Source: a virus
Taxonomy: Duplodnaviria; Heunggongvirae; Uroviricota; Caudoviricetes
DNA: 43,294 nt
Virus record (IMG/VR): IMGVR_UViG_2609460053_000008
Direction: 5' to 3' (one strand)
In this document: positions 2,165 through 18,717 of the stretch, one piece after another
Numbering within the stretch: position 1 is the stretch's first letter
Layout: each line of letters begins with the position of its first letter
Made by a program: the position numbers and the translations under genes
The notes under the pieces: generated by a model
What the model was told of the DNA's origin: nothing
What the model saw: only the letters and a program-made list of their open reading frames with translations
The model's database searches: none

Positions 2165-2353
2165 TCACGAGGACAGAAGTTTCTCGCAATTAAAATTTAT
2201 CAGCTTTACTTTCTGCTCTCTGGACACGCCTGCTTCTTTTTTCCCTGAGAGCATTTTTTCGCATTCTGATTTCGTTAATTTAGATTTTGAATATCTTGTC
2301 CAGTTAGTAGGAGTGCCACCTTCTTTTTCAATAGTGGCAGTTATTTTATACAT
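2165..2353 (-). CDS. Hypothetical small protein (62 aa)
   Basis: ATG preceded by GGAGG at 5 nt spacing; overlaps lar stop by 8 nt; start chosen inside the 86-aa ORF. Confidence 0.4.
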   Translation of the reverse strand: MYKITATIEKEGGTPTNWTRYSKSKLTKSECEKMLSGKKEAGVSREQKVKLINFNCEKLLSS

Positions 2354-2540
2354 GAACACCTCCATTATTATTTCCAGTAGTTCGTTTATTCCATCTTTCG
2401 AGTGCTTCTTTTTCACTTCCACCATAGCCAGTTCGGGATTCGCATCCGTTGCATTTTGCCCGGTAATATCCTGAAATGGCTTTCACCGTTACTGATGGAC
2501 AACCACAAAACGGACATGGTTTGACTTTTTCATACCGCAT
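2346..2540 (-). CDS. ralR: Restriction alleviation protein Lar/RalR-like, zinc-ribbon
   Basis: MRYEKVKPCPFCGCPSVTVKAISGYYRAKCNGCESRTGYGG matches recalled Rac RalR; Cys4 motif. Confidence 0.6.
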   Translation of the reverse strand: MRYEKVKPCPFCGCPSVTVKAISGYYRAKCNGCESRTGYGGSEKEALERWNKRTTGNNNGGVHV

Positions 2541-7637: not shown

Positions 7638-8032
7638 AATTATCTCCATTTTTACAAATGAATTTTGTCGATGCGGTGCCTGGTGCCTCCAGGTGACGTT
7701 AACCAGTTAACAATTAACGCCGGATAATCCACCCATAACACTGATGCTTTTAACTGTGCCGCGTGCGCTTAGCCGCATTCACCGCATCACAAAATTCACT
7801 TTAAAAAGGGGCGGCAGGGCAGCCACGGAGTAGAACTGATGCCGCCAAAGACTACACATAGCAATGTCGTTATTTACAACCGGAGGCGCACTCCCACCAT
7901 TTAAATTTAACAGACAAGACCGACTCTTTATGAATACCGGAAATGCGCCTTCGTGTTGTGCGCCTGTCTTTTTACCACTTCAGGCTCGGTGGTATACTGG
8001 AGTTCTCACACAACCAGTAATAAGGTATTCCG

Positions 8033-13426: not shown

Positions 13427-13595
13427 TTTTGGTTCAACTAAATACAACGTCAGTTTTGAAGAATGGCATGAACTGTTAATGGACTATGCAGAGTTACGTG
13501 GTGGCAGTGCTGCTGATGCTGAAGCATGGCGTGATGATTATGAAGCAGAAAAAACTCCGGTCGAAGCATATTGTGATGAGTGGGGCGATGAATGA
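13419..13595 (+). CDS. Small acidic protein (58 aa)
   Basis: Hand-translated MADFGSTKYNVSFEEWHELLMDYAELRGGSAADAEAWRDDYEAEKTPVEAYCDEWGDE; start overlaps upstream stop (ATGGCTGA), stop overlaps next start (ATGA). Confidence 0.45.
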   Translation: MADFGSTKYNVSFEEWHELLMDYAELRGGSAADAEAWRDDYEAEKTPVEAYCDEWGDE

Positions 13596-13849
13596 GCGAG
13601 GTTAATTATCAGGAAGGGCATGAAACGGCGGGGCAAGCAAAAACAGTGGCATGGCGATATCGCTACGTGAAAAAAAAGGCGTTACGGACTTTCAGGGGAA
13701 GTAGTGGTCTGGTGACTGGAAATATGTACCGAAAAAAGAGGATTGTAACGACAGGCCGAACTATGAAATTCAGGCCTTATTCACTGCCCCGCCAGTCCCG
13801 GTTACATCAGAAGAACTGGTTAAAGCTGTGCACTTTTATGAACAACTAA
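13592..13849 (+). CDS. Questionable ORF; alternative frame is more protein-like but is interrupted by TAG at 13702
   Basis: Start coupled to upstream gene; product highly basic; see findings. Confidence 0.25.
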   Translation: MSEVNYQEGHETAGQAKTVAWRYRYVKKKALRTFRGSSGLVTGNMYRKKRIVTTGRTMKFRPYSLPRQSRLHQKNWLKLCTFMNN

Positions 13850-14078
13850 AACGCGAAAATCCACCAGCATCCGGAAACCTGATTACAGATTCCCAGATAA
13901 GGCAATGAGCTACCTGGCGCAGAACGGGCTGATAAGTATGGGGAATGTTTTACGATGAATATTTAGACTAAAGAGTTTGTAACGCTATGTAAGTGATTTT
14001 TTCTGGTTTAGATATTTATATATCCGGCCAAATTGAGGTGTGTTTAAATGTAATTGCACATTGATTGTAGGAGGAATA

Positions 14079-14258
14079 ATGAAAAACGCATTGCAGTTTT
14101 TGTTTGTTGCGTTCTGGTTGTTCGTATCATGTATGCCCATCATCTTCACAGCAAGGTATATGGAAAAAGTTGATGTTTTGATATTAATATTTGGATATAT
14201 AAATGCCCTTTTTTTAGGGGTGTTCATGGCGGTCATGTGCATTGAATACTGGCGGTAA
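14079..14258 (+). CDS. Small hydrophobic membrane protein (59 aa, two predicted TM helices)
   Basis: AGGAGG RBS 5 nt before ATG; MKNALQFLFVAFWLFVSCMPIIFTA...VLILIFGYINALFLGVFMAVMCIEYWR; AT-rich island. Confidence 0.5.
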   Translation: MKNALQFLFVAFWLFVSCMPIIFTARYMEKVDVLILIFGYINALFLGVFMAVMCIEYWR

Positions 14259-14460
14259 ATACAGCGAACGCCATTGGTTTAGTTGGATATTTACTGTGCC
14301 GGACAAAAACGGTTTGCGGGGAAATCTTAGTTAAGTAGAATGACTGCGGGTGCTTGAGGCTATCTGTCTCAGGCATGAACACCAAAAGGCAGATAGAGAA
14401 AAGCCCCAGTTAACATTACGCGTCCTGCAAGACGCTTAACATTAATCTGAGGCCATATCT

Positions 14461-14520
14461 ATGCGACACATAGAGATTAGCCTCTTACGGACCGAAAGGT
14501 CAAGGAGAAGCAGGCTATGA
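14461..14520 (+). CDS. mok: mok-like leader ORF overlapping the hok start
   Basis: 19-codon ORF MRHIEISLLRTERSRRSRL ending in TGA that overlaps hok ATG (CTATGA). Confidence 0.4.
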   Translation: MRHIEISLLRTERSRRSRL

Positions 14521-14672
14521 AGCAGCAAAAGGCGATGTTAATCGCCCTGATCGTCATCTGTTTAACCGTCATAGTGACGGCACTGGTAACGAGGAAAGAC
14601 CTCTGCGAGGTACGAATCCGAACCGGCCAGACGGAGGTCGCTGTCTTCACAGCTTACGAACCTGAGGAGTAA
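14517..14672 (+). CDS. hok: Hok/Gef family type I toxin (51 aa)
   Basis: MKQQKAMLIALIVICLTVIVTALVTRKDLCEVRIRTGQTEVAVFTAYEPEE; hallmark TRK(D/S)LCE motif; matches recalled HokD/RelF. Confidence 0.8.
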   Translation: MKQQKAMLIALIVICLTVIVTALVTRKDLCEVRIRTGQTEVAVFTAYEPEE

Positions 14673-14742
14673 GAGACCTGGCGGGGGAGAAATCCCTCGC
14701 CACCTCTGATGTGTCAGGCATCCTCAACGCACCCGTACTTAA

Positions 14743-14761
14743 CCCGCTTCGGCGGGTTTTT
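14743..14761 (+). terminator. Rho-independent terminator after hok
   Basis: CCCGC-TTCG-GCGGG hairpin followed by TTTTT. Confidence 0.65.
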
Positions 14762-14946
14762 GTTGCGTGCTGAATGTGCAGGGTGAAAAATAACCATATA
14801 TTTGATTATATACACAACAAAAAATAAAAGTCATTGTACCTGCACATTAAACAATCAAATATACGGCGTGAAATAAATATTTTTCAGATTAATATTTTTG
14901 TCTCTATGTGGATATAACCGTTTGTACTTATAAACCTGGAGGCATC

Positions 14947-15159
14947 GTGGAAAAAATAAAAAAACTATTTAGTAGCAAATACGCAGTCATACGTCGTGAT
15001 GACTTGTCAGTTATAGTCGAAATGGATTACTTCCCTGAAACCACAAAATCAATGATGTATCGTAATGGTCGAAAGGCAATTTTTTTACCGATGAGGGTAA
15101 GTGACATTATGGGAAATGATAAACTGCTGGATGAATTGCGAGTCAGAGCATCCTGTTAG
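14947..15159 (+). CDS. Hypothetical protein (70 aa, GTG start)
   Basis: GGAGG 5 nt upstream of GTG; preceded by AT-rich promoter-like region. Confidence 0.4.
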   Translation: MEKIKKLFSSKYAVIRRDDLSVIVEMDYFPETTKSMMYRNGRKAIFLPMRVSDIMGNDKLLDELRVRASC

Positions 15160-16671: not shown

Positions 16672-16697
16672 CTCAATCTGTTATCCGGGGCTATATT
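16668..16697 (+). promoter_or_regulatory. PR'-like late promoter (TTGACT-N18-TATATT)
   Basis: Near-consensus -35/-10 overlapping the Q stop codon. Confidence 0.55.
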
Positions 16698-16758
16698 CCT
16701 CACGCGCCAGCAAAATCTGGCGTCGGGATTAGCACCCCGGATGTTTACGGAGCGATAT

Positions 16759-16780
16759 GAGACGCGCCCGCGTCTTTTTT
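16759..16780 (+). terminator. tR'-like terminator about 75 nt downstream of the late promoter
   Basis: GACGC-GCCC-GCGTC hairpin followed by TTTTTT. Confidence 0.6.
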
Positions 16781-16944
16781 CATATCGTTTGCACAGTCAC
16801 ATTCGCGATTTATGGCGGGCTGTGTGGGGGAGCCGAAAGGCTCGCCGGTTTCCGTACCCGGTAGTGCTAACCCCGCACAGTTCGCCACCACGATGATTAG
16901 CACCTGACGGTGGCGATAATGTCCAAATGTACGGAGTTATCGTT

Positions 16945-17526
16945 ATGGCTACTCAGATTTCTGTCGAAACTCTTTCCCCAATTACACACAACCAAATTCC
17001 CGTTATCACTACCGAGTTACTGGCACAGCTTTACTGTACCGAGATCAACAACATCAAAGTAAATTACACCCGTAATTCCGAGCGTTTTGTTGAGGGTAAA
17101 CACTTTTTCAAGGTTGTTGGTGATGAGTTGAAAAATTTGCGGGTTACTTTAAGTAACTCACAAAATTTGCAACCATCTTTAAGAGGGTTACAAATTTCCC
17201 CGAAAGCCCGCTCCCTCATCCTCTGGACAGAACGCGGAGCAGCCCGTCATGCCAAAATGCTCGAAACCGATCAGGCGTGGGATGTGTTCGAAAAACTGGA
17301 AGACTGCTATTTCAGACAAAAGGATCCGTCAGCGCCAGTTTCATGCCAGAAAAGTTACGACACGCGAGTTCTCTGTTATCAGCAAGGCGGTGTCACTGTT
17401 TCCACAATTCAGTTGCGGGATGATGATATTGTTATTTCCCTTGAGTCATGGCTGGAACTGGCGAGAGCCAATGGTTGGTTTGTTGTTCGCAGAGATAAAC
17501 TGGTGGAAAGGCTGATGCAGCTTTAA
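16945..17526 (+). CDS. ORF6N/KilA-N-like domain protein, putative antirepressor-like
   Basis: N-terminal ITTELLAQLYCTEINNIKVNYTRNSERFVEGKHFF resembles the ORF6N domain; sits in the Q-to-lysis slot. Confidence 0.4.
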   Translation: MATQISVETLSPITHNQIPVITTELLAQLYCTEINNIKVNYTRNSERFVEGKHFFKVVGDELKNLRVTLSNSQNLQPSLRGLQISPKARSLILWTERGAARHAKMLETDQAWDVFEKLEDCYFRQKDPSAPVSCQKSYDTRVLCYQQGGVTVSTIQLRDDDIVISLESWLELARANGWFVVRRDKLVERLMQL

Positions 17527-18375: not shown

Positions 18376-18717
18376 ATGAAAATGCACAATGCCCCTCATT
18401 CCTGGCCTGACTTACTGGAACTCTTACAAAGTTGGTGGCGTGGAGATACGCCGCTGGGCGCAGTGGTCATGTCAATTATTATGGCTGGTTTGCGCATTGC
18501 CTATTTTGGCGGTGGCGGCGGCTGGAAACGAAAAACGCTTGAGATTCTGCTTTGTGGTGCCCTGACGCTGACCTTTGCATCCGCGCTTGAGTACGTTGGA
18601 TGGCCTAAATCACTTTCTGTTGCCATTGGTGGTGGGGTGGGGCTGATTGGTGTTGATGCTATTCGTGGTGCGGCAATGAGGGTCATCGGTAACAAGTTTG
18701 GTGCCCATAAGGAGTAA
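18376..18717 (+). CDS. Holin, lambda S-like class I, with MKM dual-start motif
   Basis: GGAGG RBS; three hydrophobic segments; pattern parallels lambda S; immediately upstream of the endolysin. Confidence 0.75.
   Translation: MKMHNAPHSWPDLLELLQSWWRGDTPLGAVVMSIIMAGLRIAYFGGGGGWKRKTLEILLCGALTLTFASALEYVGWPKSLSVAIGGGVGLIGVDAIRGAAMRVIGNKFGAHKE

Follow-up and report, generated by a model that had tools for sequence, protein, structure and literature searches.

The window that we analyzed is 43,294 nucleotides of DNA from a virus of the Caudoviricetes (IMG/VR record IMGVR_UViG_2609460053_000008), and it holds a Rac-like prophage of Escherichia coli, of about 41 kb, that looks complete. In the nin region of this prophage there is a hok/mok/sok cassette, and upstream of the cassette there is a 59-codon open reading frame that is probably the gene of a small membrane protein. 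The cassette is a known system that has already been annotated, and we have nothing new to say about it as such; the only fresh point is the upstream gene. All the sequence features named in an initial annotation of the locus were found where it had put them, give or take one base. What we say below of the identity of the cassette, of the positions of its elements, of their folds and of the constraint on them across relatives is read from the DNA itself and from alignments.

The toxin gene, hok (hokD), lies at 14517-14672 on the plus strand, behind a Shine-Dalgarno sequence (AAGGAG at 14502-14507), and encodes 51 amino acids. An initial annotation, made from the letters of the sequence, had called the product a Hok/Gef toxin with the motif TRKDLCE, and the translation does contain VTRKDLCEV. 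The build of the protein (hydrophobic residues 3-27, then TRKDLCE, and a cysteine at position 30) is the Hok/Gef layout of a single N-terminal transmembrane helix and a polar tail with the conserved cysteine. Pfam's HOK_GEF (PF01848) is matched over all 42 positions of the profile, with E = 1.2e-23 and a score of 82.9 bits (cut-off 22). It also matches PHROG 251, "MokW-like host killing" (2.8e-33). The protein is identical to HokD (RelF) of E. coli K-12, the nucleotides of the coding sequence are identical to K-12 hokD as well, and it is 92% identical to HokW. Two Hok models from NCBIfam scored below their cut-offs (the subfamily model NF007279, 48.5 against 73, and the HokA equivalog NF007290, 40.2 against 89). 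RefSeq labels this exact protein HokD (WP_000813254.1, with the gene annotated as hokD), and we do not count the low NCBIfam scores against its membership in the family. HokW is toxic, is neutralized by sokW, and aids the release of phage Sp5 (PMC8621323), and HokD, the identical protein, has served as a toxic control (10.1101/2025.08.07.668861). In Sp5, phage yield after induction has been seen to drop when hok-sok is deleted.

The predicted hok promoter is at 14313-14341 on the plus strand (-35 TTTGCG at 14313-14318, a 17-nt spacer, and -10 TAGAAT at 14336-14341). With so weak a -35, it was passed over by a scan for consensus promoters. Its -10 and start region are kept in 933W, in vB_EcoS-640R1, and in the Rac-type phage. 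The predicted full-length mRNA (14348-14766, about 415 nt) begins where the match to the Rfam family RF01794 begins, at 14348. It runs through an intrinsic terminator at 14741-14763 (a 7-bp stem with 5 GC pairs, the loop TTCG, and a T run); the terminator that the initial annotation had placed after hok is this stem-loop, at 14741-14758, and the T run behind it. The tac element is at the 5' end of the mRNA (14348-14359) and the fbi element is near its 3' end (14722-14734). In both the minimum-energy and the centroid fold, these ends close on each other, with approximately 14346-14359 pairing with 14722-14736; the minimum-energy fold of the mRNA is at -176.5 kcal/mol (z = -8.9 relative to shuffled sequences). 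RF01794 matches 14348-14519 over the full model (1-157 of 157); the score is 106.7 bits and the cut-off 59. Although Rfam names this family "sok," the model describes the hok-sense strand from the 5' end of the mRNA to the AUG of hok, so the match confirms the conserved leader and not the antisense transcript itself. Also, an isrK-like match at 14681-14762 (24.8 bits, cut-off 50) can be ascribed to a resemblance to the terminator hairpin.

Within the leader, mok (14461-14520, plus strand) has 19 codons and a Shine-Dalgarno sequence, GAGG, at 14449-14452, and in the alignment with mokW of 933W the two start codons coincide. It is below the 20-amino-acid floor of our listing of open reading frames and was read directly from the sequence. 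The initial annotation had described a 19-codon mok-like frame that overlaps the start of hok, which is what we find: the frame opens with ATG at 14461-14463, and its TGA (14518-14520) and the ATG of hok (14517-14519) share the letters ATGA. The mok stop lies downstream of the hok Shine-Dalgarno sequence at 14502-14507, and the mok frame spans that sequence. The hairpin in mok is variable, and the register of its stem differs between variants.

On the minus strand we predict a Sok antisense RNA of about 69 nt, running from 14467 down to 14399; its position was transferred from the misc_RNA feature for sokW in 933W. It would have a single-stranded 5' tail of 13 nt, a 24-bp hairpin, and then UUUUCUCU, a U run. 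The minus strand folds at -29.8 kcal/mol and the plus strand at -18.8 kcal/mol, so folding favors the minus strand by 11 kcal/mol. The predicted sok promoter (minus strand, 14503-14474; -35 TTGACC at 14503-14498, an 18-nt spacer, and -10 TAATCT at 14479-14474) has the position of the sokW promoter region in 933W. This promoter, too, was missed by the consensus scan, because its -10 fits at only 3 of 6 positions. The inverted repeats noticed in the initial annotation are present (TTAACATTA at 14410-14418 and at 14436-14444, around GCGTC at 14420-14424 and GACGC at 14431-14435), and they are the terminator hairpin of Sok together with its target in the hok mRNA. The initial annotation had also suggested an Rfam search for Sok on the minus strand. 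That search did find RF01794 at the locus, but on the hok-sense strand, with no separate match on the minus strand. Because the model was built on the hok-sense strand, we placed the antisense gene by homology to 933W and by folding. The sokW RNA of Stx phage, which neutralizes hokW in a duplex that RNase III cleaves, has been validated experimentally (PMC8621323). Judging from the sequence, then, the window appears to contain a cis-antisense Sok gene, with a promoter, an RNA that would cover the initiation site of mok, and a terminator hairpin.

The GC content of the whole window is 48.7%. The stretch from 13850 to 14950 had been described as an AT-rich island, which is correct for the two spacers that flank the cassette (38.1% GC at 13850-14300 and 30.4% at 14766-14946) but not for the hok cassette proper (14301-14765), which is 51.0% GC. 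A block that starts at 13875 or 13923 and ends at 14765, and that includes both the small open reading frame and hok, behaves as one mosaic unit. The consensus promoter scan reported only two sites, both on the minus strand and both in the AT-rich spacer (14834-14805 and 14887-14858); we set these aside, as 2 were found and 2.9 would be expected by chance. We also considered K-12 Rem as the identity of a 70-amino-acid open reading frame 3' of hok, and there is no similarity between them.

The small open reading frame is at 14079-14258 on the plus strand. As the initial annotation had it, the frame encodes 59 mostly hydrophobic amino acids, has a Shine-Dalgarno sequence AGGAGG (14069-14074, 4 nt before the ATG), and belongs to no recognized family, as it has no match in Pfam, NCBIfam, PHROG, or PADLOC. 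AlphaFold2 models the protein as a helical hairpin (helices at 2-26 and 31-58, pLDDT 71), and we predict that it resides in the inner membrane. The Shine-Dalgarno sequence varies: it is AGGGGG (A14072G) in 8 of 28 aligned sequences (27 haplotypes and the window), GGGGGG in the allele that we call A2, and AGGGA in allele B. Further upstream, TGTTTAAAT at 14041-14049 may be an extended -10 element; the consensus scan did not report it, and the alignment of all three alleles keeps the pattern TGnTTAAnT. One phage record gives the name "hornerin" to a minus-strand open reading frame of 85 amino acids (13985-14242); we reject it as a shadow of this gene, because it has two stops in allele B.

The three alleles of the small frame (100, 76, and 41% amino-acid identity) are widespread. 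Allele A is found in 1,585 of 5,426 complete E. coli genomes, and allele B in 1,045. Every allele that we found has a hok promoter, or a remnant of hok, about 55 nt downstream of it. Conversely, just 15 of 80 HokD loci from IMG/VR carry the small frame. In the settings of allele B that we examined, a decayed remnant and a copy interrupted by IS1, there was no intact hok beside it; the allele also occurs on one viral contig. A scan of genome contigs for the small frame gave only two loci from Shigella flexneri and one match from Asticcacaulis (27 residues, 41% identity), which we take to be spurious. A full-text search of the literature with peptide strings from both alleles gave no match.

Our overall reading is that the window carries an intact hok/mok/sok cassette of the hokD/hokW type (approximately 14313-14766), that this cassette works as related ones do, and that the upstream gene is probably a passenger; we give this reading as a whole a probability of about 0.88. 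The first suggestion, a type I hok/mok locus that has both an antisense partner and a terminator, is correct, and is supported by the annotation of hokD, by the match to RF01794, and by the mapping of sokW, mokW, and hokW from 933W. As for transcription, processing, toxicity, and timing, we infer these from the paradigms of hok/sok from plasmid R1 and hokW/sokW from Sp5. The weak promoter would yield a hok mRNA (about 415 nt) that is stable and that tac-fbi pairing would keep closed and untranslatable until slow trimming of its 3' end opened it. Ribosomes would then start at mok (14461), cross the hok Shine-Dalgarno sequence in the course of 19 codons, and stop on AUGA, which would lead to translation of hok. 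While the abundant and unstable Sok (about 69 nt, 14467 to 14399) was present, it would pair across the Shine-Dalgarno sequence and start codon of mok and block mok translation, and the duplex of Sok and hok mRNA would be a target for RNase III. If Sok fell, for example upon induction or loss of the prophage, the 51-amino-acid Hok would enter the inner membrane and depolarize the cell.

One alternative is that the cassette is a silent relic and that its 19-codon mok is a frameshifted derivative of the usual 70-codon frame. In the window, mok and hok are offset by 56 nt, which arises from a -2/+1 indel pattern, while in 58 of 80 IMG/VR HokD loci the offset is 57 nt and mok is in frame with hok as a 70-codon open reading frame. 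The window's form, for which coupling is a prediction, is in the minority (11 of 80). Decay is common among related loci: 11 of the 80 have no leader, as in K-12, and 21 of 117 are broken exactly at the ATG of hok. Also, chromosomal hok loci often fail at post-segregational killing, according to work cited in 10.1101/2025.08.07.668861. Against this, every known element of the cassette is intact and correctly spaced, and the host prophage looks complete. The 76-nt stretch at the mok-hok junction is shared, at 99% identity or more, by about 785 E. coli records. The +1 insertion looks compensated rather than random, because it restores a 4-bp stem, with GACC/GGTC in place of UGCC/GGCA. And in R1, where exactly the first 19 codons of mok precede hok, mok translation is needed only up to the start of hok and is dispensable past it (PMC9841398). 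We consider it unlikely that the cassette is a relic.

The 59 codons upstream of the cassette could be a chance frame in a T-rich spacer, hydrophobic only through base composition: the AT skew of the region is -0.19, and when the local sequence is shuffled, about 10% of the shuffles contain an ATG-initiated frame of at least 59 amino acids, so its length alone is no evidence for coding. The polymorphism within allele A is also almost all nonsynonymous (about 11 changes, with at most 1 synonymous), variants that are frameshifted at the T7 run at 14209-14215 exist in databases, RefSeq does not annotate the gene in the genomes that we checked, and the four libraries hold no family for it. It is the comparative data that argue for coding. 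Start, stop, and the length of 59 codons are unchanged in the alleles at 76% and 41% identity, with no indels in the frame although the flanks do carry indels. Of 117 loci that were sampled with a DNA pattern, 115 have the frame intact. Values of dN/dS are 0.35, 0.23, and 0.26, and between alleles A and B the identities at the three codon positions are 35, 43, and 29 of 60, with the second position the most conserved and the third the most variable. This frame is the only one that is open in both A and B; the other five have stops in allele B (four also in A) and BLOSUM62 scores of at most 62, compared with 150 for the small frame. Between A and A2 the frame is 84% identical while its flanks are only 66% and 75% identical. 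All alleles share a charge pattern (an N-terminal K or R, an acidic loop, and a C-terminal R), and the conserved residues are W13, S17-C18, P20, T24, FG-x-x-NAL, and a C-terminal IE-x-WR. So a chance frame seems improbable to us, and, as the three-allele comparison and the AlphaFold2 hairpin suggest, this is probably a real gene that is conserved and translated into a two-helix inner-membrane protein. Its product might be an effector, namely a second membrane toxin or a factor for superinfection exclusion or immunity, acting with Hok or alongside it. It is small, with two transmembrane helices and conserved polar and helix-breaking residues, its position upstream of hok is constant and resembles that of a moron, and it may have its own promoter. 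However, there is no antisense RNA, Rfam match, or second antitoxin nearby (the best Rfam hit near the gene, with E = 0.18, is to a snoRNA model and falls far short of the gathering score), and the strand opposite 13900-14340 has no pair of promoter and terminator for an antisense antitoxin. Allele B is intact in about 1,045 genomes with hok and sok deleted, which argues against an unguarded toxin and against strict dependence on Hok; PADLOC has no match, and the gene is missing from most HokD loci. The effector role is conceivable but doubtful. We rejected a type I toxin in particular, as there is no antisense partner and allele B persists partnerless in a decayed prophage remnant. We also rejected a class II holin: the C-terminus is just ...IEYWR, with no charged tail, there is no PHROG match, and the lysis cassette, with its annotated holin of the lambda family (18376-18717), is about 4 kb further downstream. 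Class II holins and superinfection-exclusion proteins are similar to it in size and in the predicted N-in/C-in hairpin, but this likeness is one of shape only, with no sequence match in the libraries.

We favor a passenger: the small gene is probably a moron that is carried with hok, rather than a part of the toxin-antitoxin mechanism. That the small gene and hok work together as a two-gene module in the membrane is a long shot. If it were true, the small protein might tune the insertion or toxicity of Hok, protect the membrane of the lysogen, or exclude superinfecting phage; prophage hok loci would then have a third protein component that has been overlooked, and roughly 30-50% of E. coli genomes would carry one or the other allele. 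As it stands, the gene offers small-protein work on prophage morons a target that is cheap and well defined.

The closest known systems are hokW/mokW/sokW of the Stx phages 933W and Sp5, which are the same cassette and are likewise hosted by lambdoid prophages. Their DNA is 90.6% identical to the window over 14302-14744, and the promoter, leader, Sok hairpin, fbi, and hok come in the same order, with sokW, mokW, and hokW collinear with their counterparts. But mokW has 70 codons in frame with hokW, while mok in the window has 19 and stops on the start of hok, and the terminator and neighboring genes downstream are unlike those of the window. Also, about 7 of about 17 positions differ in the 5' tail of Sok and its target, so the Sok RNAs of the window and of 933W may not cross-react.

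In K-12, hokD (relF) of the Qin prophage has a 3' untranslated region, including fbi and the terminator, that is nearly identical to the window's, but on the 5' side the two sequences are homologous only up to about 15 nt before the ATG. Further upstream K-12 has relBE instead, and so it has no hok promoter, tac, Sok target, sok, or mok; the window holds the regulatory half that K-12 lacks. What K-12 keeps as a relic, hokD, is present in the window in its intact form.

The paradigm of these systems is hok/sok (parB) of plasmid R1. R1 Hok is reported to be 44% identical to HokW (PMC8621323), and the R1 system is hosted by a plasmid rather than a prophage. The closure by tac and fbi is shared, as are a mok Shine-Dalgarno sequence and start that are covered by Sok, and the 19 codons of mok before hok. 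Both Sok RNAs have a 5' tail and a hairpin, and their mechanisms are presumably alike, although the hairpin in the window has an extra insert of 16 nt relative to the Rfam consensus. In R1, mok continues to 70 codons and overlaps hok in another frame, while in the window it ends after 19. So the window is a natural case of mok cut down to the 19 codons that are sufficient according to mutagenesis of R1.

The initial annotation reported a hok/mok toxin locus, which is right and unremarkable: the locus is an already known and annotated hok/mok/sok cassette in intact prophage form. What we can add is modest: a conserved gene for a predicted small membrane protein that travels with hok and has no annotation in any of the RefSeq records that we inspected. 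The window's sequence is identical to part of the chromosome of Escherichia coli FDAARGOS_1289, and it contains, between yebY and pphA, a complete prophage of roughly 41 kb. The early genes of this prophage are Rac-like (integrase, excisionase, ralR, recT, recE, kil, a repressor pair, ydaT, and ydaV), and the rest includes a nin-type region, a Q-like gene, a lysis cassette, and tail genes. Within the nin-type region, the hok locus and the upstream 59-codon ORF (the small ORF) are flanked by a frameshifted pseudogene (13592-13908) on one side and a hypothetical gene (14947-15159) on the other. The pseudogene's counterpart is intact in strain MSB1_4I (171 amino acids, WP_016236032.1). The hypothetical gene, which follows hok and a spacer of 30% GC, encodes 70 amino acids and belongs to PHROG 1813 (function unknown); we considered whether it might be Rem, which is downstream of hokD in K-12, but the two are unrelated. 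The locus had been described as an AT-rich island. There are two AT-rich spacers (13850-14300, 38% GC; 14766-14946, 30%), but the hok cassette between them has an ordinary composition (51%, versus 48.7% for the whole window).

The ORF at 14517-14672 encodes MKQQKAMLIALIVICLTVIVTALVTRKDLCEVRIRTGQTEVAVFTAYEPEE. The product matches Pfam's HOK_GEF (82.9 bits, cut-off 22) and PHROG 251 ("MokW-like host killing"), and RefSeq names it hokD (WP_000813254.1). It scores below the cut-offs of two NCBIfam Hok models, which we do not read as evidence against membership. The coding sequence is nucleotide-identical to that of K-12 hokD, and the protein is 92% identical to HokW of the Stx phages 933W and Sp5. 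HokW is toxic and is neutralised by sokW, in part via RNase III and Hfq; it also roughly doubles the release of Sp5 after mitomycin C (PMC8621323). Codon 47 of hok is TAC, in a UACG context (14655-14658). A preprint that surveys Hok reports A-to-I editing of hokB by TadA and something comparable for hokC, hokD, and hokE, with reference to "cysteine 46" (10.1101/2025.08.07.668861). We take codon 47 to be the reported site, where editing would recode Tyr47 to Cys.

The alignment of K-12 hokD to the window is limited to a stretch that begins about 15 nt before the ATG and runs to the terminator; further upstream, K-12 has relE, so the window has a regulatory half that is absent from the K-12 relic. 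Rfam's RF01794 ("sok") does match here (14348-14519, 106.7 bits), as the initial annotation proposed to check, but on the plus strand. Because the match extends from GGGUGCUUGA to the hok AUG, this model describes the hok mRNA leader and not the minus-strand antisense RNA. The predicted hok promoter (plus strand; -10 TAGAAT at 14336-14341 and a weak -35 TTTGCG at 14313-14318) is at the right distance from 14348, and both elements are conserved in other phages. When we folded 14346-14766 (-176.5 kcal/mol, z = -8.9), the first 14 nt were predicted to pair with 14722-14736, which in this model is the classical closure of the mRNA's 5' end (tac, 14348-14359) with its 3' element (fbi, 14722-14734). 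The terminator that had been noted after hok is an intrinsic terminator at 14741-14758, downstream of the fbi pairing region.

As for Sok itself, sokW is annotated in 933W on the strand opposite hokW, and via alignment it maps to the window from 14467 down to 14399. The predicted Sok is a minus-strand RNA of 69 nt that folds into a free 5' tail of 13 nt, a 24-bp hairpin, and UUUUCUCU. The segment's fold energy is -29.8 kcal/mol on the minus strand versus -18.8 kcal/mol on the plus strand, which we attribute to positions where the minus strand has G-U pairs and the plus strand has C-A mismatches. The inverted repeat that was noticed previously (TTAACATTA, GCGTC, GACGC, TTAACATTA; 14410-14444) is present and can be refined to the predicted Sok hairpin. 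Upstream of Sok, promoter-like hexamers (minus strand; TTGACC at 14503-14498 and TAATCT at 14479-14474) are 18 nt apart. The predicted RNA spans the mok Shine-Dalgarno sequence (GAGG, 14449-14452) and the mok start codon.

Is the small ORF a gene? It lies at 14079-14258 (plus strand), encodes MKNALQFLFVAFWLFVSCMPIIFTARYMEKVDVLILIFGYINALFLGVFMAVMCIEYWR, and has an upstream AGGAGG, all as first described, and we found no family match in four libraries. Some observations do not favour coding. About 10% of shuffles yield an equally long ORF, so its length is not significant. Polymorphism within the window's form (allele A), with about 11 nonsynonymous and at most 1 synonymous differences, does not favour coding or is neutral. 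A T7 homopolymer inside the ORF (14209-14215) is frameshifted in entries P0019, P0021, P0024, and P0025, which have altered C-termini; these could be true variants or sequencing errors. On the other side are two relatives: allele B, a 59-amino-acid form at 41% identity from an exhaustive HMMER search, and allele A2, at 76% identity from a profile search. Start, stop, and length are shared by all three alleles without any indel, whereas indels do occur in the flanking sequences. The dN/dS ratios are 0.35 (A vs A2), 0.23 (A vs B), and 0.26 (A2 vs B), and A and B agree at 35, 43, and 29 of 60 sites at codon positions 1, 2, and 3. Apart from this frame, none is free of stops in both A and B; its BLOSUM62 score is 150, versus at most 62 for the other five. 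(An 85-amino-acid minus-strand ORF, "hornerin" in one phage record, is a shadow ORF with stops in allele B.) The ORF is intact in 115 of 117 copies, which were sampled by DNA pattern and not by protein. AlphaFold2 predicts helices at 2-26 and 31-58 (pLDDT 71), and the basic residues at both ends and the acidic loop of every allele would fit an N-in/C-in hairpin. Given the allele comparison, the intactness, the structure prediction, and the charge pattern, we consider the ORF, with moderate confidence, to be a real gene for a predicted small inner-membrane protein. The upstream regions of all three alleles conserve TGnTTAAnT (14041-14049), which, speculatively, could be an extended -10 element.

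Allele A is found in a mosaic block, usually from about 13875 or 13923 to about 14765, and hok follows it in 84 of 117 sampled copies. In 21 of the 117 loci (IMG/VR), the leader with sok and mok is retained but similarity ends precisely at the hok ATG, which looks like recurrent disarming of the toxin. In E. coli IAI1, no hokD is annotated downstream of the small ORF, and the annotation continues with an HTH gene and an IS1202-like transposase. In E. coli TA280, allele A2 has an intact hok leader downstream (Rfam, 115 bits). Allele B is found in 1045 genomes, among them ST131, within a decayed Rac remnant at ttcA; the 3' half of hok is 55 nt downstream, and the 5' half of hok is deleted together with its promoter, sok, and mok. 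In ST131 (NZ_CP063774.1:124518-125018) and related strains, this remnant, at the Rac attachment site, is highly decayed and contains fragments of an integrase, of DUF1627, and of the 3' end of hok, and a metal ABC permease pseudogene. Allele B is unannotated there in RefSeq, and one translated copy (a Logan contig) has an intact 59-codon ORF. Thus, every allele of the small gene that we examined adjoins hok or a remnant of it. The converse is uncommon: among 80 IMG/VR loci that encode identical HokD, only 15 have the small gene, and in 933W and many other phages the shared unit is the hok cassette alone (about 14300-14765). From the small gene's survival without hok or sok, we argue that its product does not depend strictly on Hok and is not an unguarded toxin.

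The window has other small RNAs. A second type I toxin-antitoxin system in this prophage comprises the RalA antitoxin RNA (2169-2347, plus strand; Rfam, 219 bits), opposite the annotated ralR endonuclease toxin gene (2346-2540, minus strand). A DicF-type sRNA (60.9 bits) is at 7809-7860 (minus strand) in the early region. Rfam matches to C4 antisense RNA, its a1/b1 targets, and isrK (16691-16892, plus strand) are just upstream of an ORF6N-domain gene (16945-17526); we take these to be a putative P1/P7-type C4-antirepressor immunity module beside the Q-like gene. At 463-607, the host sRNA pair SraC/RyeA (minus strand) and SdsR/RyeB (plus strand) lies between yebY and the integrase, so the prophage inserted right beside this locus.

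The 19-codon mok-like ORF was also described accurately: it starts at 14461, and its TGA (14518-14520) overlaps the hok ATG. Around its start is the only hypervariable patch (about 14453-14477; alignment columns 106-131) in a leader that is otherwise 93% conserved, and this corresponds to Sok's 5' tail and the target hairpin. Genomes have a median of 2 hok loci and a maximum of 9, and the patch probably sets pairing specificity among them. At least eight sequence variants of it occur among otherwise near-identical loci, with varying hairpin register, which suggests diversification of Sok/target specificity. In 58 of the 80 HokD loci, mok and hok are offset by 57 nt, so that mok reads in frame into hok and has 70 codons, as in the mokW annotation; 11 have the window's 56-nt offset and 11 lack the leader. 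A 76-nt stretch across the window's junction is found at 99% identity or more in 785 E. coli records, which makes the 56-nt form an established allele. With the extra T of this form, a predicted stem changes from UGCC/GGCA to GACC/GGUC, which as paired is a compensated change. In plasmid R1, which has the paradigm hok/sok, the first 19 codons of mok are those upstream of hok, and stops before the hok start abolish toxicity while stops after it do not (PMC9841398). The window's mok keeps exactly the part that is required in R1.
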